A stretch of DNA of 28,355 nt from Candidatus Woesearchaeota archaeon (GCA_964491045.1 CAZBFA010000001.1:1-28355), one strand, 5' to 3'. Positions 8,324-26,530 are shown, numbered from the stretch's first letter. The notes: generated by a model not told the origin, from the sequence alone. Made by a program: numbers and translations.

Positions 8324-9469
8324 TCAGCCGAACATTCCTGATGCTTCATCAAGGTCATTCTTTTTGAGCTTTTCTATGGATGCCAAGAAATCCTCCAGCT
8401 CAATGACTTTTCTATTTTCCCTTATTGCCAAGTATCCTGCCTCAGTGCACACTGCCTTTATGTCAGCGCCAGAAAATCCTTCTGTTTCATGAGCCAGCCT
8501 TTTGACATTGATATTATTTTTCTGCATTTGCTTTGTGTGTATCTTAAATATCTCCAGCCTTCCCTGCTCATTCGGCAATGGCACTTCAATCAATCTGTCC
8601 AATCTTCCGGGCCGCAGCAAAGCAGAGTCCAGTATATCAATCCTGTTTGTTGCAGCAATGACTTTTACATCTCCAAGGGGCTTGAAACCATCCAGTTCTG
8701 CCAGCAACTGCATGAAAGTCCTTTGCACCTCTCTTTCCCCAGATGTTCCAATGTCAAGCCTTTCAGCAGCCAATGCATCAATCTCATCAATGAACAATAT
8801 TGATGGCGCTTTTTCCCTCGCCAGCTGAAAAATGTCCTTTACTAGCTTTGCCCCCTCTCCGATGAATTTCTGGTTCAGCTCACTCCCGACAATTTCAATG
8901 AATGTGGCGCTAGTTGATGCAGCAACAGCCTTGGCCAATAATGTTTTTCCTGTTCCTGGCGGGCCATATAAAAGAACAGCTTTTGGTGGTTCAATGCCGA
9001 CTTCTTTGAACAATTCGGGCTTTTTTAATGGCAGCTCTATAACCTCTCTTATTTCCATCATCTGATCTTCCAAACCACCCAAATCTCCCCATGACATGCT
9101 CGGCCTTTCAATGATTAAAAAATCCTCAACATTATGGGTTTTTGCCTTGTCCAGCTTGCCTATTATGGTTAATGATTTTTGCTCGCTCAGCACCATGTCA
9201 CAGGCAGCAAGTTTGTTTAACAGGCTTTTTGAGATGTTCACAACGAAATTATTCCCATTGGGCAATTTTACCATGGCTTTCTCGCCAAAGATGGACTTGA
9301 CTTCACAAACAATTAATGGCCTGTCATTGAATTTGTTTAATTCCCTTTTCAGGTCAAGAAGATTTTCCTTCAAAGTCTTGTTTTCTTTCTCTAAATCAAG
9401 GCCAATACCAAAATCTTTCTTGATATTGAAATCATCTAAATTAGCATCTACAGTATCCACATACATCAC
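8324..9469 (-). CDS. pan: Proteasome-activating nucleotidase (AAA+)
   Basis: N-terminal coiled coil and OB region, GGLEDQ..EIREVIELPL, GPPGTGKT, FIDEID, AATNR, LLRPGRLDR. Start may be GTG 9460 (AGGTGA upstream). Confidence 0.95.
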   Translation of the reverse strand: MMYVDTVDANLDDFNIKKDFGIGLDLEKENKTLKENLLDLKRELNKFNDRPLIVCEVKSIFGEKAMVKLPNGNNFVVNISKSLLNKLAACDMVLSEQKSLTIIGKLDKAKTHNVEDFLIIERPSMSWGDLGGLEDQMMEIREVIELPLKKPELFKEVGIEPPKAVLLYGPPGTGKTLLAKAVAASTSATFIEIVGSELNQKFIGEGAKLVKDIFQLAREKAPSILFIDEIDALAAERLDIGTSGEREVQRTFMQLLAELDGFKPLGDVKVIAATNRIDILDSALLRPGRLDRLIEVPLPNEQGRLEIFKIHTKQMQKNNINVKRLAHETEGFSGADIKAVCTEAGYLAIRENRKVIELEDFLASIEKLKKNDLDEASGMFG

Positions 9470-9698
9470 CTTTTTTTGTCATCATTACTCTTTTTTGTGA
9501 ATTTCATCTGTCCTTTGGGACTTTTAAATTTTTCTGCACAAAAAGACAATAATCCTGTGAAAGTTCGTAACTGCTGAAAGAGAAATGCCAAAGGTTTGCC
9601 AAAAAATCATGAATAACTGAAAAATTTGCAGTTCCTATGTAGTAATTTTCAGCAATTTCATGAAAGTGGTTATAAACAACACCCAGATATTATTTAAA

Positions 9699-10064
9699 AT
9701 GGAAGAAAAAACACTCTTTAAGCTGGCTATTGTAACCTCGCTGATTGGGCTTTTTATCATGATTATAATGGCAGAAAATTTAAACGCACCAGATATCAGC
9801 GCAGCAGCAATTGATAAAGGCATGATTAGCAAGAATGTAAAGTTGACAGGAACCCTTGCGAGCAAAAAAGACTTCAAAAGCCTGGTAATATTCAATGTAA
9901 CTGACAGTTCTGGCTCAATAAATGTCATTATTTACAAAAAATCAGGCAAGTTTGGCTCTTCAGGTTTCAGGAAAGGAGATTTATTGGAAATAGAGGGATT
10001 TGTAAAAGAGTACAACAAAATGCTTGAAATAGAGGCAAATTATATCAAAAAAATAGAGCCATGA
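9699..10064 (+). CDS. Membrane-anchored OB-fold protein
   Basis: N-terminal TM, then VKLTG...FNVTDSSGSINVII...GDLLEIEGFVKEY..MLEIEA (OB pattern). TATA at 9670-9677 supports ATG 9699. Confidence 0.75.
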   Translation: MEEKTLFKLAIVTSLIGLFIMIIMAENLNAPDISAAAIDKGMISKNVKLTGTLASKKDFKSLVIFNVTDSSGSINVIIYKKSGKFGSSGFRKGDLLEIEGFVKEYNKMLEIEANYIKKIEP

Positions 10065-10135
10065 CCTCAAAAACATCCGAAAATATTCCGAATTTTTTTA
10101 GCTATTCCTTATAAAAAAGTAATTTGCTTTTGTGT

Positions 10136-11326
10136 ATGATAATACTTTTCATCAGCATTGTGCTTCTTGGAGTTATTATTGGAATAATCACAGGCCTGAT
10201 GCCTGGAATCCATATAAATCTCGTTGCATCATTTATTGCATTTATCCTTCCATTGATGGCAATAGACCCATTGATTGCTGTAATCCTTATCTTGTCAATA
10301 TCAATCACCCATATATTCCTTGATTTTATACCAACAACATTCCTTGGAGTGCCTACACCAGATAATTCAACATTTCTTCTCCCCTCGCATGAATTATTGT
10401 TGAAAGGCAGGGCATATGAAGCAATTTTTCTCTCAACTTTTGGCTGCCTGATAGGAATAATTCTGGTTTCAGCAGTTTCTCCATTATTGTCTTTGAAGGT
10501 TGAAAAAGCCTATGCCCTAATCAGTGAATTCATCCCTTACTTGCTGATTGCAGCATTGCTTGTTCTTTTGTTGAAGGAAAAAGACAAGGCATGGGCATTT
10601 ATAGTTGTATTCATGTCAGCAATATTCGGTATTGTGTCATTTGGTTTAAGCATAAAAGAGGCCTTATTTCCAATGTTTTCCGGATTGTTTGGAATAAGCT
10701 CCCTGATTGCAAGCAGAAGTTATAAGTCAAATATCCCTGAGCAAAAGATAACAAAGGTAAAGCTGGCCAAGAAAACCCCAATGCTTGTCCTGACAGGATT
10801 TTTTGCTTCATTGCTGGTTGGTTTTCTTCCTGGCCTTGGCCCGGCCCAGGCATCAATAATAGCAACATCATTTTCAAAAAATCAGGAAAGAAAGGATTAT
10901 ATTATAATTACCGCAGCAATCAATTCAATTGTGATGATTCTTGCCGTTATTGCATTGTTCACTATAAACAAATCAAGAAATGGGGCTATAGCAATAATCT
11001 CGGAGATATTCCCAAAGAATCTATCATGGCAGCATTTTGCATTATTCCTGGCAGTCATCTTGTTTGCCTCAGGAATTGCTGCAATTGCAACAATTTTTAC
11101 TGCAAAATACTTTGTAAAGATATCCAAAAAAGTCAATTATGCAGCTCTTTCCATCTCTGTAATTGCCATCATAGTCATTTTGGTCTTGCTGCTCTCAAAA
11201 CTGGCTGGCCTTCTTATACTATTTGTCGGAACTTCGATAGGCTTGATTCCCATATTAAAAAAAGTCAGTAGAAATCATCTGATGGCCTGCCTGATAGTGC
11301 CCATAATATTATACTATTTGCTTTGA
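10136..11326 (+). CDS. Tripartite tricarboxylate transporter TctA-like (archaeal DUF112) membrane protein
   Basis: GIITGLMPGIHIN, H.FLDFIP..FLGVP, LP.HELLLKG.AY, GLFGIS, LPGLGPAQA and SRNG. TATA at 10109-10116 supports ATG 10136. Confidence 0.85.
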   Translation: MIILFISIVLLGVIIGIITGLMPGIHINLVASFIAFILPLMAIDPLIAVILILSISITHIFLDFIPTTFLGVPTPDNSTFLLPSHELLLKGRAYEAIFLSTFGCLIGIILVSAVSPLLSLKVEKAYALISEFIPYLLIAALLVLLLKEKDKAWAFIVVFMSAIFGIVSFGLSIKEALFPMFSGLFGISSLIASRSYKSNIPEQKITKVKLAKKTPMLVLTGFFASLLVGFLPGLGPAQASIIATSFSKNQERKDYIIITAAINSIVMILAVIALFTINKSRNGAIAIISEIFPKNLSWQHFALFLAVILFASGIAAIATIFTAKYFVKISKKVNYAALSISVIAIIVILVLLLSKLAGLLILFVGTSIGLIPILKKVSRNHLMACLIVPIILYYLL

Positions 11327-16314: not shown

Positions 16315-17962
16315 CAGAAAAATTCATGATTTTCACTTCCCTGGTTTTTAAATTCAATATTGGAACTCTTCCCGGATTTGGATTATTCCCCGTCTTTTCC
16401 TGAAATGAAGTTTTTCCCTGAAAGCAGCTGCAATTTATCAATAGGACATTATTATAATTAACAACATCAGATCTATGCATCTCTCCAGATACAAGTATAT
16501 CAGGCAGCTTGTCTATGAAAAAAGGATCTTCTTCAGTATTTGGCATGTAAACGGTTGATGAATGTGTTGGCGCAAGATGCCTTTTCTGCAGCAAAAATTT
16601 TATCACAGTTGCAGGATTGTCCCTTGCTGAAGCCTGCCTCAACGAATCAACTTCGTCAATGTAATAATGATAGCTTGCCCCATGGTACATTAGAACATTG
16701 AATCCCTCAAAATCTTTTTTGGAATGTATGTTAACCATGCAGGGATTGCTGACCATAATCAGGTTTGGCAGCGCATACAATGCGTGCGCAAATTCCTTGT
16801 CCAATGGGGGCTGTGGTTCGGCTGCCCTTATTGAATCATGCTGCCCTGGAGAGATTATTATTTTGATGTCTTTTCTTATTAGGCTTATGCATTCGGCGGC
16901 GGCATTGTACTGCTGCATTATGTCGCGGAAAAGCAGTTCTTTTTCCTGCCCGGGATAAACTCCAACACCCTCAACAATATCACCGATAATAAACAAATAC
17001 TTCACTTTTGAAGACACTCTTTTTTGCAGGAAACTTCCGCTGTTTCCATTCAGCCAGTCAATAAATTCCAGGAATTCTTTTTTCATGAACAGCTTGCTGC
17101 CAAAATGAAGGTCGCTTATGAAAGCAACGCATGCCTCATCATCGCATTTCTTCAGCTCCTTTGTAAGAGGCACATCGGGGAATATTATCTGTGTTGCAAA
17201 AATTACTCTTCCCCCATAAACGCCAGTAATTCCTAGCACTTCATCGCACACAACATTTTTTCCTGCCTCAGCGGCTTTTCCCTCTTTATTTATTAAAACC
17301 TCTATTGTTCCTGTCGGGTCTTCTACTTTCAGGATTATATTCCCATTTTTTGTAGTCCTCTTGTCATGCACAATCCCTATCAATGCAACTGCTTCTTTTT
17401 CCTGCTTGCCTGCTATCCTGTTTATCGAAACAAGTCCCTGCAGCTCTTGCCTTGATTGCAATAGGTTTTTGATCAGATTATACCTGAGCTTGAAATATTC
17501 AACAAAGTCTTCCACCCCTCTTTTTTTGGGCTCATCTTTATATTCTTTAAGCACGATCACGCTGCTGTAATTTTCATTGGTCTTCTCTTCTTTGATATTA
17601 ACTTTCTCTTCATGCTTTACTTCTTCCAGCATCTTGTCAAGCTTTTTTTTCTCGCCAGTATGGTAACCCAATAGGTCTAGAAATACCTTGTAAGCTTCAT
17701 CATTTTTCCCTTTTTCAATCAGCACCCGTGCCTTTTCAAATTCATTCCAGTTGATGTCAATTTTTGCAAGATTATCTTCTTGCAATTTTGGCATTACCTT
17801 TATCAGGTCCTGGTTTAGCACAGACAATCGGCCATTCAGCTCAGCATCTTTTTTCAAGGAAATTAATAGCTCGGAGGAATCCTTCCCGTCAAACTCATCC
17901 GCAATGTCTGGTGACAGCAAAAATCCGTTTTCAATGAATAGTTTTATGTTTTCTTTGTTCAT
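16304..17962 (-). CDS. polB: DNA polymerase D small subunit DP1 (proofreading exonuclease subunit; not a family-B polymerase)
   Basis: OB domain (EDPTG), ISDLHFGS, GDIVEG.G.YPGQ, PGQHD..R.AEPQP, YHGAS, LLQKRHLAPTH. Overlaps cdc6 (ATGA) and DP2. Confidence 0.93.
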   Translation of the reverse strand: MNKENIKLFIENGFLLSPDIADEFDGKDSSELLISLKKDAELNGRLSVLNQDLIKVMPKLQEDNLAKIDINWNEFEKARVLIEKGKNDEAYKVFLDLLGYHTGEKKKLDKMLEEVKHEEKVNIKEEKTNENYSSVIVLKEYKDEPKKRGVEDFVEYFKLRYNLIKNLLQSRQELQGLVSINRIAGKQEKEAVALIGIVHDKRTTKNGNIILKVEDPTGTIEVLINKEGKAAEAGKNVVCDEVLGITGVYGGRVIFATQIIFPDVPLTKELKKCDDEACVAFISDLHFGSKLFMKKEFLEFIDWLNGNSGSFLQKRVSSKVKYLFIIGDIVEGVGVYPGQEKELLFRDIMQQYNAAAECISLIRKDIKIIISPGQHDSIRAAEPQPPLDKEFAHALYALPNLIMVSNPCMVNIHSKKDFEGFNVLMYHGASYHYYIDEVDSLRQASARDNPATVIKFLLQKRHLAPTHSSTVYMPNTEEDPFFIDKLPDILVSGEMHRSDVVNYNNVLLINCSCFQGKTSFQEKTGNNPNPGRVPILNLKTREVKIMNFSGED

Positions 17963-19197
17963 ACTGCAAGGCCCTCTTTTAGCAGGTCATCTACATTTTT
18001 TAGTATCTCTTCAGGCATTGCCAGGCAGACTTCTCGCGTCCTTCCATACCTCCCTTTGCTTATCACTTTTGTAGTTATTATGCCCAGCATTTCAAGCTCA
18101 GAGATAATGTCGCATAACCTTCTTTGTGTCAGGGGCCTTAACCCTACTTTGAAGCATAACTCCTTGTACACTTCATATATCTCACCAGTAAAAATTGGCA
18201 TGTTGTTTGTTATCTTGTTGTGTATGCGTATTATGGAATAAAGAGCAAGCTTGCATTGTTTTGGCTGCGTGCTTATTATATTTGTGAATAAATCTGTCTC
18301 TATCTTGTCTTCTGCAGTATCCAGGTCACCCACTTTTATGGCATTTTTTCCCCTCCTTTCTGCAATCTCACCAGCAACTCTTAAAAGGTCCAATGCTCTT
18401 CTTGCATCGCCATGCTCTTTTGCAGCATAGGCAGCGCATTTTTCAATAACACCTTCTTCCAGCACTCCTTCTTTAAATGCTGTTTTCACTCTCTGCCTTA
18501 ATATGTCCTGAATCTGCAATGCGTTGTAAGATGGGAATGTTACCTCTTCCTCACCCAGGCTGCTTTTTACTCTTGGATCAAGGCTTTGCGTAAAAACAAG
18601 GTTATTTGAAATTCCTATCAATGATATCTCTGAACTTTTTAATTCAGAATTTAATCTTGTAAGATTGTAAAGTATGCCATCCCCTATCTTTTGCCCAAGC
18701 TGATCTATCTCATCCAGGATTATTATGAGCAGAACCTTGTCTCGCTCTATTGCCTTAATGAACATCTTGTAAATTTCAACAGTAGGAAGCCCTGTTGCAG
18801 GTATTTCCTCGCCAAACTCGCTTGCTAATTGCGCAATCAGCCTGTATTCTGTATCAGCTATTCTTTTTAGCTTGCAATTAAGATAAATAACTTTGAACTT
18901 GCGGTATCCTGCTTTTTCTAATTTTGAGGAATTTTTTTCTGCAGTTGAAATCATATCATTGCATATATTCTGTATTGTCAGGCTTTTTCCAGTGCCTGTT
19001 TGGCCATAAATGAAAACATTTGAGGGCTTTTCTCCTTTTATTGCAGGAGCCATGATGCTGTTAAGCTGTTGTATCTGCTCTTCCCTGTGCAGGATTGTTT
19101 TCGGGGTATAATTTGACTGCAATACTCTTTTATTAATAAACAAAGGCTCTTGTTTTAAATAGTTTTCAAAAAAATTAGTCAGCCCTTTTTGCCCCAT
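17959..19197 (-). CDS. cdc6: Orc1/Cdc6 replication initiator
   Basis: Y.P..ILHRE.QI, GQTGTGKS (Walker A), ILDEID, RVKSSL, F.SY...QI.DIL..R, HGDARRALDLLR and C-terminal wHTH ending GRYGRTR. Confidence 0.96.
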   Translation of the reverse strand: MGQKGLTNFFENYLKQEPLFINKRVLQSNYTPKTILHREEQIQQLNSIMAPAIKGEKPSNVFIYGQTGTGKSLTIQNICNDMISTAEKNSSKLEKAGYRKFKVIYLNCKLKRIADTEYRLIAQLASEFGEEIPATGLPTVEIYKMFIKAIERDKVLLIIILDEIDQLGQKIGDGILYNLTRLNSELKSSEISLIGISNNLVFTQSLDPRVKSSLGEEEVTFPSYNALQIQDILRQRVKTAFKEGVLEEGVIEKCAAYAAKEHGDARRALDLLRVAGEIAERRGKNAIKVGDLDTAEDKIETDLFTNIISTQPKQCKLALYSIIRIHNKITNNMPIFTGEIYEVYKELCFKVGLRPLTQRRLCDIISELEMLGIITTKVISKGRYGRTREVCLAMPEEILKNVDDLLKEGLAV

Positions 19198-19265: not shown

Positions 19266-19287
19266 ACACCTTCATTTCCTATGGAAG
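19266..19287 (-). promoter_or_regulatory. ORB-like box 1 (CTTCCATAGGAAATGAAGGTGT)
   Basis: Fits the TTCC-N3-GGAAA...AAGG ORB pattern; lies just upstream of the cdc6 TATA (19237-19230). Confidence 0.75.
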
Positions 19288-24456: not shown

Positions 24457-24723
24457 GTGGTAAAATTAGCCAAAAGAACAGTTGATTTGCTAAAGGATGA
24501 TGTTGTTAACATCCTGTATGAAAATGCGCTTAAACCATTGTTTACTAATGAAATAGCCATGCTTTTGCGAAGAGATAATGAGTTTACCAAGAGGTTATTG
24601 CTGGACCTTAAGGGAATGGGTCTTGTTGAAGAGGTCAAGTTAAACAAAAGGAAAAAGCAATATATTCGAAGGATAAGGTGGAAAATAGAAAAAGAAGTAC
24701 TGAAAAAATTTGATGGGAGATAG
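24457..24723 (+). CDS. Small basic winged-helix DNA-binding protein
   Basis: 88 aa; LFTNEIAMLLRRDNEFTKRLLLDLKGMGLVEEV fits a wHTH. GTG start about 25 nt after a TATA. Confidence 0.7.
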   Translation: MVKLAKRTVDLLKDDVVNILYENALKPLFTNEIAMLLRRDNEFTKRLLLDLKGMGLVEEVKLNKRKKQYIRRIRWKIEKEVLKKFDGR

Positions 24724-24783: not shown

Positions 24784-25218
24784 ATGCCAATCGTAGGTTT
24801 TAATTTTACAAAATTAACTGCAGAACGCAAGAAAGACCAGATTAAAGGAGATGTTAAGGTAAAGAATGATTTAGTTCTACAGTCTTTAACTACAACAGAA
24901 GTTGAATTGGGCGGCAAAAAACAAAACGTGCTGAAGCTAACTTTCGACTTTTTGATAGAGCACCAGCCAGGCCTGGGTAACATGATTTTAAGCGGTTTTG
25001 TGTTATTCTTGGAAGCTCCAGAGAATACAAAAGCCATCTTGGATACATGGAAAAAAGACAAGAAAATGTCTCCTCAGCTTGCAACCGTGCTTATTAATGC
25101 AATTCTCACAAGGGTGCATATTAGGGCATTGGAACTAGCGCAATCTGTTAATTTGCCTCTTCATATTAAATTGCCAATTGTTTTGCCAAAGCAGGATCTT
25201 AAGAATTATATAGGCTAA
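24784..25218 (+). CDS. Conserved archaeal hypothetical protein (possible SecB-like fold)
   Basis: 144 aa, MPIVGFNFTK...LPxHIxLP. The fold call is inferred from the beta-strand then C-terminal helix pattern. TATA at 24755-24762. Confidence 0.65.
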   Translation: MPIVGFNFTKLTAERKKDQIKGDVKVKNDLVLQSLTTTEVELGGKKQNVLKLTFDFLIEHQPGLGNMILSGFVLFLEAPENTKAILDTWKKDKKMSPQLATVLINAILTRVHIRALELAQSVNLPLHIKLPIVLPKQDLKNYIG

Positions 25219-25238
25219 GCACTCATTTATGCAGTTAT

Positions 25239-25299
25239 GCACATCCTAAGCACACTCTGAGCACACTCTGAGCACACTCTGAGCACATCCTAAGCACAT
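25239..25299 (+). repeat. Tandem 11-bp direct-repeat array
   Basis: GCACATCCTAA, GCACACTCTGA x3, GCACATCCTAA, then partial GCACAT, ending 3 nt before ATG 25303. Confidence 0.9.
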
Positions 25300-25510
25300 A
25301 AAATGTGGAAAGACGTACTATCCCTCAAAAATGACCTTAGGCTTTCTTTTTCCAAGGTTAAAGAACATATAACCTCATTAGAAGACCAGGTGAAAGCACT
25401 AAAAGAACAGGTTAAAACCCTTCAAAACGCTTTGGAAAGCTCAAACTCTCAAAATATGCCTGAATTGCCACCTTTGCCCATTCCTGTGCCAGAATCTCCT
25501 AAAGAAGTAA

Positions 25511-25531
25511 GTTCCATGGAAATGAAGGGGT
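25511..25531 (+). promoter_or_regulatory. ORB-like box 3 inside coding sequence (GTTCCATGGAAATGAAGGGGT)
   Basis: Shares TTCCAT..GGAAATGAAGG with box 1 and has a full G-string, but a 2-nt rather than 3-nt TTCC/GGAA spacer. Confidence 0.6.
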
Positions 25532-25533
25532 CT

Positions 25534-25584
25534 ATTCATTCATTCATTCATTCAAACATTCATTCATTCAACAAACAAGCATTC
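25534..25584 (+). repeat. Tetranucleotide microsatellite (ATTC)5-AAAC-(ATTC)3-AAC-AAAC-AAGC-ATTC
   Basis: Read directly; it starts 2 nt after the G-string of box 3. Confidence 0.85.
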
Positions 25585-25924
25585 AACAACTGCTCTCAAC
25601 CATTACAAAACAAGAGCTTCTGGTGCTTTTGACTATAGTTCAATTAGAAGAGGAACTTGGCACTATAACTTACTCTATATTGTCTGATAAGCTTAAACTC
25701 TCACAGGGGTGCATTAGGGGGTATATAACCTCATTAATGCGCAAAGGAGCCCCAATTTATAAAGAGAAATACAATAATAAGATAACGCTCATAAAAACAA
25801 CCTCTCATTTTAAAGCTACAGACAAACAAGCTCTCATTAGCTCATTTTACAGCATTGATCCTTATCAAAAGCGTCTTGATTAACTCTCACTTTTATGCAA
25901 AATAATCAAAAATGCCATAAAATC

Positions 25925-26530
25925 TCATTTTTGGGCCTTTTTTACTAGGGCATTTCTCTCCTTTAAGATCTCATTTTTCAGTTTTTCATCAATAAAAAAG
26001 CGTTTTTTCCCGTTTCTTTCAATATATTCCATCAATAATCCCTCATTTTTTTGTTTTATATTGTTTACTTGCCCTCTTATTGTTGATTTGTCTCTCCCCA
26101 CCATGATGCTCAAGTCATCATAAGTTAATTTCATTTCATTATTCAGCAGAATGCTTATTATGGCTCGTTCCATAGGGGTTAGATTTTTAGTCCATTTATC
26201 CCCCCTTCTGCCTGTTTGGACAACAACAGATGGTTGTTTTAAACGGCTGTCCGTTTGTGTTTGTCCAAACGGCTGTCCAAACACCCTCTCGTCTTTCTGG
26301 TTTGCCCCGAAAGCCTCGTTGAACAATAACTCTAATTGATCAATTCTCTCCTGTAATCTGAATAATTCAGCATTTTTGCTCCTATGACCATCATGTAATT
26401 TGTCTATTTTTGAATTAATATGTGTAATATCTGTTTTAACATTTAGAAATGACCTGTGCAAAGAAGAGTGTATTCTGTCAAATTTCTCGCTTAACTCCTC
26501 ATACTCTCTTTTTTTCACCCAAAAAAACAT
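25925..26530 (-). CDS. Coiled-coil/low-complexity linker/C-terminal HTH protein
   Basis: N-terminal heptads (SFLNVKTDITHINSKID), Q/T/G-rich linker, then LTPMERAIISILL..EMKLTYDDLSIMVGRDKSTIRGQVNNIKQK...KKRFFI. Confidence 0.8.
   Translation of the reverse strand: MFFWVKKREYEELSEKFDRIHSSLHRSFLNVKTDITHINSKIDKLHDGHRSKNAELFRLQERIDQLELLFNEAFGANQKDERVFGQPFGQTQTDSRLKQPSVVVQTGRRGDKWTKNLTPMERAIISILLNNEMKLTYDDLSIMVGRDKSTIRGQVNNIKQKNEGLLMEYIERNGKKRFFIDEKLKNEILKERNALVKKAQK

Follow-up and report, generated by a model that had tools for sequence, protein, structure and literature searches.

An 11-bp phased box array upstream of a winged-helix gene in a Woesearchaeota archaeon is most likely a candidate control site for the gene's own protein

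Genes and repeat units at the locus

Here, we have analysed a stretch of 28,355 nucleotides from a Candidatus Woesearchaeota archaeon (hereafter the window), which is one whole contig of a 915-kb genome assembly (172 contigs, 86% complete). The contig encodes arginyl-tRNA synthetase (ArgRS), PolD and Cdc6/Orc1 (17959-19197), and an AT-rich region flanked by ORB sites lies beside Cdc6 at 19.2-19.6 kb, with the ORB consensus found at origin position 19267-19286. About 6 kb from this region, the 84-bp spacer between a conserved gene, P0001, and the downstream gene A is filled by an array of 11-bp direct repeats. The features of the locus are as follows.

24457-24723, + strand: small gene of 88 aa encoding a winged helix-turn-helix (wHTH) protein; second conserved neighbour and alternative candidate binder
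24784-25218, + strand: P0001, conserved 144-aa gene without family match; upstream neighbour
25207-25214, + strand: TATA-like TTATATAG in the last codons of P0001 (N-Y-I-G)
25219-25229, + strand: degenerate outlying unit GCACTCATTTA, directly after the P0001 stop
25239-25293, + strand: five full 11-bp units in the order A-B-B-B-A
25239-25249, + strand: A unit 1, GCACATCCTAA
25250-25260, 25261-25271 and 25272-25282, + strand: B units 1, 2 and 3, GCACACTCTGA
25283-25293, + strand: A unit 2, GCACATCCTAA
25294-25302, + strand: terminal partial unit GCACATAAA, containing GCACAT (25294-25299) and abutting ATG 25303
25303-25883, + strand: gene A (coiled coil, disordered linker and MarR/ArsR-like winged helix), the presumed binder
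25511-25530, + strand: ORB-like box (the type of site bound by replication initiators) in the linker-coding DNA of gene A
25534-25570, + strand: (ATTC)n run in the linker-coding DNA of gene A, of a period-4 type that recurs upstream in relatives
25925-26530, - strand: gene B, convergent paralogue (coiled coil and wHTH) with its own TATA at about -30

Gene A is split into two frames in this assembly (25303-25632 and 25503-25883) by the loss of one base at about 25516, where TTCCA-TGGAAAT is found in place of the TTCCAnnGGAAAT of its relatives. The break lies within the ORB-like box, which is one base short (TTCCA-T-GGAAAT), and not in the (ATTC)n run beside it. None of the small wHTH gene, P0001, gene A and gene B has a match in Pfam or NCBIfam that passes the threshold; the sub-threshold sequence matches were HTH_11 and HTH_24. 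The AlphaFold model of the gene A orthologue from the sister genus, made with 31 aligned sequences, has a helix at residues 2-47, a disordered stretch at 51-84 and a wHTH domain at 86-158, the C-terminal domain being modelled with a pLDDT of about 90. Its best Foldseek matches in the PDB were HsmR, ZitR, SmtB, MepR and CzrA (E values of 2e-3 to 1e-2 over about 100 residues), so that the closest structures, at E of about 2e-3, are those of MarR and ArsR/SmtB regulators. A predicted complex of two copies of the orthologue scored 0.23, which is below the mark and bears on dimerisation in neither direction. Closer relatives were sought with P0001 in JGI metagenomes, where the sister-genus contig was the only hit, and by protein search, which gave none above 69% identity and in which the nearest named protein is that of a Candidatus Woesearchaeota archaeon.

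Read directly, positions 25239-25299 consist of GCACATCCTAA, three copies of GCACACTCTGA, a second GCACATCCTAA and GCACAT, and the units can be described as a conserved 6-bp box, RCACAT, followed by a 5-bp spacer, YCTAA. Tandem Repeats Finder reported a period of 11 with 4.5 copies, 92% matches and a score of 79, as well as a period of 22 with a score of 92, and a repeat search returned five copies at spacings of 11, 11, 11 and 11. The array recorded in the first-pass annotation of the window is thus borne out by the sequence, by Tandem Repeats Finder and by a second assembler (see below), while the symmetric A-B-B-B-A order given there is true as written but incomplete, the real order being A-B-B-B-A-a with every unit in one orientation. 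The outlying unit GCACTCATTTA starts 20 nt before the first A unit and is out of the 11-bp register; ATGCAGTTAT comes right after it. The CTAAGCAC at 25215-25222 overlaps the TAA stop of P0001 (25216-25218). The two kinds of unit are not equivalent. The A unit is of the type that forms the consensus throughout the order, whereas B as a repeated unit was seen only here and in the nearest genus, and a position weight matrix built from the relatives gives 15.7 bits to A and 9.5 bits to B.

It had been proposed to search for the pattern elsewhere, and in the 915-kb assembly a 16-nt two-unit pattern matches only this locus, with 0 matches for the reversed control. Likewise, the array is the sole place in the genome bin where a 6-mer recurs at least four times at an exact period of 11 bp. 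A two-unit scan with the weight matrix returned the array and one other place, inside a LAGLIDADG-like ORF on contig C2, which we take as a chance match and not as a member of a regulon. That ORF (8997-10340, - strand; 447 aa, two LAGLIDADG-like motifs) lies immediately upstream of, and overlaps, an ORF of 248 aa, and may be an intein or a free-standing homing endonuclease. Two repeats of other kinds were encountered in the same assembly. Four AATAAG boxes with a 12-bp pitch lie at 8166-8215 of contig C9, upstream of a small ORF that was judged AbrB-like from its N-terminus only (MDIKRKIYKRGSSYETTIPK), and a 10-bp unit, TAAAGGTTTG, is present in 4.5 copies at 2759-2805 of contig C119, within a 105-aa ORF on the - strand, where it encodes a repeated peptide.

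Neither an RNA element nor a coding function accounts for the array. There is no Rfam match and no tRNA in the window, and folding of the spacer gave a z of +0.65 relative to shuffled sequences. As for coding, the 11-bp period rotates TAA/TGA through all three + frames.

Stability of the array and its promoter context

An 11-bp repeat could change in copy number, and the array had been suggested to be a contingency VNTR, in which gain or loss of a unit would switch gene A within a population; it might also be an artefact of assembly. Copy number does differ between genera (two against three B units, and other lengths elsewhere), and a 180-nt contig from a second sample stops inside the array at 25285. 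Within the sister species, by contrast, the array is constant: the same array is present in all five assemblies examined (JGI, Logan and ENA records), which represent at least three samples and include a strain variant, so that variation was seen only between genera. For the genome studied here, the comparison is one of contigs, and a Logan contig of run X1 (835 nt, depth 6.6) covers 24800-25468 with 0 differences and 0 gaps. Run X1 is probably the source sample and hence not independent DNA; the agreement nevertheless means that the copy number, reproduced without a break by a second assembler, does not stem from a single assembler's error. Indel variants were not reported, and three 11-bp units (33 bp) would make no repeated 31-mer, so that collapse is unlikely. 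We consider both switching and artefact to be highly improbable, and the VNTR suggestion finds no support in this comparison.

The sister genus (G008) shows how the array may have grown. It carries A'-B-B-A'', that is, TCACATCTTAT, two copies of GCACACTCTGT and a unit beginning GCACGT, with two B-type units where three are found here. The A/B/A layout is therefore older than the split of the genera, and the symmetry of A-B-B-B-A seems to have come about through duplication of the inner B unit and not as a designed palindrome. Moreover, ATGCAGTTAT follows the array in the sister genus and precedes it here, so that the position of the array within the flanking DNA has changed as well.

The position of the array is best understood from the promoters of this genome. 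Upstream of 613 long ORFs, a sharp maximum of TATA-like hexamers is found between -31 and -28 relative to the ATG, with 65-70 counts at its top over a background level of about 5-10, so that transcripts are essentially leaderless in this genome. P0001, gene B and the small wHTH gene each have a TATA-like box in the usual slot, and the promoter of gene B is an ordinary TATA promoter with no CACAT array. At gene A, the -31 to -28 slot is occupied by the third B unit and no TATA-like hexamer is present between the array and ATG 25303, in agreement with the first-pass annotation, which had placed the array where the TATA of gene A would normally be. The sole TATA-like hexamer within 100 nt upstream of this ATG is TTATATAG. 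Its use would place the transcript start at about 25237, level with the first array unit. In the spacer between P0001 and gene A, T never occurs five or more times in a row and Shine-Dalgarno-like words are absent; since the spacer has neither such a T run nor a TATA, co-transcription is possible. Gene A is thus probably transcribed either from about 25237 or by read-through from P0001. The orthologues of P0001 end in a conserved (D/N)-Y-I-G, and the DNA that encodes it, immediately ahead of the stop, contains a TATA-like TATAT(A/T)GG that could double as a promoter element of gene A where no other TATA is present. In the genome studied here, in the sister genus and in L057, a third relative, no well-placed TATA is found between the boxes and the ATG, and all three share an identical P0001 end including TTATATAG.

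These features could be taken to mean that the array is a decaying remnant in this genome, in which a weakened unit has been multiplied by slippage where the promoter of an already broken gene used to be, and the extra copies are idle. Gene A is split here by a one-base loss relative to every relative, the TATA expected from the rest of the genome is missing, the B units score below the A units, and three identical B units imply recent duplication. With the gene frameshifted and its TATA missing, the local array may be disused even if its counterparts elsewhere are operators. On the other hand, gene A is intact in the sister genus, where A-B-B is found and no well-placed TATA is present, so that the layout is older than the break; the flanking A units are perfect copies of the consensus; and at a coverage of only about 6.6 a sequencing error or a minor allele may account for the frameshift. 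Decay of the local array is in our judgement unlikely.

Conservation across the order and covariation with the recognition helix

To see the array in a wider context, analogous arrays had been proposed to be looked for at orthologous loci, and we surveyed 53 related genomes of 18 GTDB families, 30 loci being added to a first set. The neighbourhood is well conserved, with P0001 present in 38 of the 41 sampled genomes of the order and the gene A family in 36 of 37, and with a gene A orthologue downstream of P0001 on the same strand at 20 of the 29 relatives' loci fetched. At least one CACAT occurs within 170 nt upstream of the gene A orthologue in 39 of the 53 genomes. Same-strand boxes exactly 11 bp apart were found in 24 of them, from 10 families, so that analogous arrays do exist, and 13 of the 53 have chains of three or more.

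The recurring word upstream of the orthologues is RCACATYCTAA, ending in RCACATAAA, and an unseeded EM motif search converged on yTAArCACAT. Within 110 nt upstream, our own locus being excluded, TCTAAA is present at 12 of 20 orthologues (2.1 expected), CACATA at 10 (0.8 expected) and GCACAT at 8 (0.7 expected); together with ACACAT, each of these words is found in 8-12 of the 20 upstream regions against an expectation of 0.7-2.1. The boxes are phased and oriented. Across the loci of 33 relatives, the distance from CACA to CACA is 11 bp in 31 pairs and 22 bp in 14 pairs, with two pairs at most at 9, 10, 12 or 13 bp, and upstream of the 33 orthologues CACAT occurs 71 times and its reverse complement, ATGTG, 0 times. 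They also keep a set distance to the promoter: at 11 of the 34 loci analysed, a TATA hexamer follows 11-13 nt after the start of the last box, and these are about half of the loci having both a CACAT-type box and a TATA at -41 to -26. The TATA would then be the next slot of the 11-bp register.

In the genomes that were checked, paired boxes are confined to this locus. Allowing up to one mismatch, the two-unit pattern was matched 56 times in 151 genomes of the order and the reversed control about 27 times; those exact or tandem matches that were checked (by coordinates in 8 genomes and by tblastn in 11 more) all lie at gene A, and the lone one-mismatch matches fall in unrelated coding DNA. The boxes stay with gene A where other genes have been inserted after P0001 (L014, L017, L022, L028, L030, L036 and L039-L041) and where gene A and P0001 are divergent (G023). 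Independent expansions have produced large perfect arrays in G004, G079, G066 and G136. G004 (L079) has at least 5.5 perfect copies of the 11-bp TCACTCACTTC at about 40-105 nt upstream of gene A, G079 has about eight TATGCA-type units, and G066 and G136 have six to eight boxes. The array of G004, a genome of the same GTDB family, runs into a stretch of N and may be longer. Conservation is not complete, and a clear upstream box is missing in about a quarter of the order's genomes. The full-length homologues of gene A in family f50, which belongs to the same class but lies outside the order, have plain TATA promoters and no arrays, although their helix, ESSIRDY, is similar to one found within the order; so do more distant homologues in the class.

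Which protein would bind the boxes is suggested by the way in which the box core changes with the predicted recognition helix of gene A. Where the helix is xC[IV]R (30 genomes of 11 families), there are on average 2.5 CACA[TC] boxes and 0 CGACA boxes. In the members of the order with the helix S[SA][IV]RDY (G057 and G074 of family f19, and G019 of f4), 4-5 CGACA boxes are found instead, which also have an 11-bp pitch and abut the TATA. Seven genomes of 5 families with xT[IV]R or GTVRGA have CAAT[GC] repeats. Families f4 and f19 each hold both kinds of helix and box, so that the type of array travels with the type of helix and not with taxonomy. We would like to point out that this is a descriptive count among related genomes in which kinship is ignored, and that whole cassettes of gene A and its boxes may have been exchanged, which would support a cognate pairing but amount to few independent events. 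Judged from these sequences, the covariation makes the gene A protein the likely binder and favours it over the neighbouring wHTH genes. The first-pass annotation had envisaged a cooperative platform for a neighbouring HTH protein; the conserved phased boxes that follow gene A and the covariation with its helix argue for such a platform, on which binding is as yet predicted.

The boxes might instead be sites for another factor, namely the small 88-aa wHTH protein, the gene B protein or Orc1/Cdc6, with gene A as the target only. Both other wHTH genes are conserved neighbours and possible binders: the small one lies directly upstream of the array in L028 and L030 and also precedes gene A in family f50, and gene B is the conserved convergent partner. 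For Orc1/Cdc6, one could cite the ORB-like box inside gene A, present in about three quarters of the loci, and the second one at -117 in family f10. Yet the boxes track gene A through changes of neighbour, their core covaries with the recognition helix of gene A, gene B has no such boxes at its own promoter, and the box sequence is unlike the ORB consensus at the origin. We therefore regard another binder as improbable.

The array as a candidate operator of gene A

We argue that the array is a row of head-to-tail sites on one face of the helix through which the protein of gene A would control its own gene, expanded here by duplication of the inner unit, and we give this reading a probability of roughly 55%. 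Among the uses considered, a docking and control site for the gene A protein is the most likely one to judge from the sequences, and not a switchable repeat. With a pitch of 11 bp, successive boxes would lie on roughly the same face of the helix, so that several winged-helix domains, joined by the N-terminal coiled coil, could bind cooperatively next to one another. Most relatives have their last box one unit upstream of the TATA, and a protein bound there would help or hinder TBP/TFB; in this way, the gene A protein would set the level of its own gene. In the genome studied here and its two nearest relatives, the normal TATA is missing, and the array reaches to -9 of the start codon in this genome. 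The place of the array here would be either the start of transcription or, if P0001 and gene A share a transcript, the spacer between them, and we infer that a bound protein would act as a block and not as a recruiter.

Several observations stand against this reading. Winged helices of the MarR/ArsR type usually bind palindromes as symmetric dimers. The f50 homologues have a similar helix and no array, and the quarter of the order without a clear box has to be accounted for. In the genome studied here, as discussed above, the gene is frameshifted and the repeated B units are the weaker matches to the consensus.

Comparison with known systems helps to define what the array would and would not be. 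It resembles parC of plasmid R1 in that 11-bp direct repeats, all oriented alike, lie at the promoter of the presumed binder's gene (period 11, 5.5 units), and by analogy with ParR-parC, cooperative binding to one face and autoregulation would be the expected mode. The differences are considerable: R1 parC has 10 repeats, in two blocks of five flanking the parMR promoter, whereas the array has 5-6 in a single block in a chromosomal housekeeping context, and R1 ParR is a ribbon-helix-helix (RHH) protein, whereas gene A encodes a coiled coil and a winged helix. Neither ParM/actin nor ParA family members were found among the neighbours scanned, and we reject an R1-type parC/ParR centromere, for which both an RHH ParR and ParM are missing. 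Plasmid iterons are likewise tandem direct repeats in helical register beside a winged-helix gene, and also serve in autorepression, but they are 17-22 bp long, lie beside an AT-rich unwinding region and are bound by a Rep with two WH domains, while the unit here is 11 bp. A plasmid iteron/Rep origin was rejected, as there is no Rep family match, the contig is chromosomal and GC at 25001-26000 is 0.365 with no AT-rich dip. The kinship with iterons and R1 parC that the first-pass annotation had drawn thus does not extend to membership in either family. An archaeal replication origin at the array was also rejected: ORB sites, AT-rich DNA and Cdc6 are found together at 19.2-19.6 kb, and the array has neither likeness to ORB nor an AT-rich core.

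There is also a likeness in geometry to the pho boxes of PhoB, which are 11-bp direct repeats made of a core and a short variable spacer, bound head-to-tail by a winged helix directly upstream of a core promoter element. PhoB has a receiver domain and is bacterial, whereas the gene A protein would dimerise through its coiled coil, at an archaeal promoter of the TATA/BRE type; furthermore, pho boxes usually number two to four, while the array is an expanding tandem. Gene A has no match to Response_reg or Trans_reg_C, its N-terminus is a single long helix, and membership in the OmpR/PhoB family was rejected for want of a receiver domain. The likeness to MarR and ArsR/SmtB proteins lies in the DNA-binding fold, which is that of gene A, and in the location of sites at the regulator's own promoter. 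Their operators are palindromic and bound by symmetric dimers, whereas the boxes here are all direct (71:0), and the N-terminal coiled coil and long disordered linker set gene A apart from them.

Among archaeal regulators, Ss-LrpB binds three regularly spaced boxes at its own promoter, and the sites of Ptr2 and TFB-RF1 lie just upstream of BRE/TATA. The array shares with these systems the multiple sites upstream of an archaeal TATA, the autoregulation (proposed for gene A) and a proximal site adjoining the BRE, but their sites are semi-palindromic and several turns apart, and the proteins are of the Lrp type or other families. To our knowledge, none of these three has an 11-bp head-to-tail array and none is from DPANN. 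The motif described here is phased, oriented, restricted to one locus and covaries with its predicted binder, as expected for a conserved cis-acting operator.

Repeats are also found within and behind gene A. In the linker-coding DNA, L028 has three perfect copies of GCACATCCTAA at +209 to +252, translated as PKHILS repeats, L008 and L044 have their lineage's own variant, ACACATCCCAA, at +261/+273, and L043 has one box copy at +252; exact 11-mers shared between the upstream region and the linker are limited to three lineages. A second cluster of boxes lies 60-100 nt after the gene A stop in L014, L038 and L047, where it looks like a duplicate of the promoter region and has no ORF of 60 aa or more behind it. 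The ORB-like box of the linker lies at about +150 to +330. Runs of 4-nt units are found in two places, before the upstream boxes and after the ORB-like box of the linker; there are five types (ATTC, AAAC, ACGC, ACTC and AATC), and among L007-L045 the upstream and linker types are identical at all 12 loci having both, which indicates that promoter and linker DNA evolve in concert. In family f10 (L089/G051 and L091/G025), the ORB-like box at -117 from gene A is GTTCCAnnGGAAATAAAGGGGTC, followed by about six CAACAATGCC-type repeats with a 10-bp pitch and then by the TATA. The word AAACTCTCA(Y)TTT occurs inside gene A at 25437-25451, 25689-25703 and 25800-25836, as well as directly after the gene A stop in L007, L038 and L047, and resembles the ACTCTGA part of the B unit.

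It is conceivable that the boxes form a centromere-like or chromosome-organising platform near the origin, on the model of ParB at parS or ParR at parC, with a coiled-coil protein coating sites around its own gene. The locus lies near Cdc6 and its ORB-flanked region here, and in three further genomes of its family the distance to Cdc6 is 6-7 kb; the additional box copies in linker-coding DNA and downstream, and the long coiled coil of the gene A protein, would fit such a role. We consider this quite unlikely, as a scan of the neighbours revealed no partner of the ParA/SegA or actin type, Cdc6 of G017 is separated from gene A by about 15 kb (and from the P0001 homologue by 148 kb), the intragenic and downstream copies exist in some lineages only, and the tight 11-13-nt relation between box and TATA points to promoter control. 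Somewhat broader is the idea that the boxes, the ORB-type site in the linker and the concerted short repeats make up an undescribed origin-proximal nucleoprotein module of Woesearchaeota coupled to Orc1/Cdc6, in which the coiled-coil winged-helix protein would coat or bridge sites around its own gene. We offer it as a speculative and rather unlikely proposal; if it is true, the module would be a chromosomal centromere-like or replication-control element and not a simple autoregulatory operator.

Returning to the operator reading, which we prefer, the locus is of interest in several respects. Our literature search found no description of the motif or of the gene A family and no characterised transcription factor-operator pair from DPANN archaea, and we know of no such pair ourselves. 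A one-turn head-to-tail arrangement is known to us from bacterial PhoB and plasmid ParR and not from archaeal promoters; here, a winged helix of the MarR/ArsR shape apparently reads such repeats beside an archaeal TATA. The presence of short repeats in both the promoter and the coding linker would be an unusual case of constraint at the level of DNA shaping a protein. The natural CACAT, CGACA and CAAT variants predict which residues of the recognition helix read which bases, and with its 11-bp unit and a candidate binder of an unnamed family, the locus offers a directly testable candidate pair.
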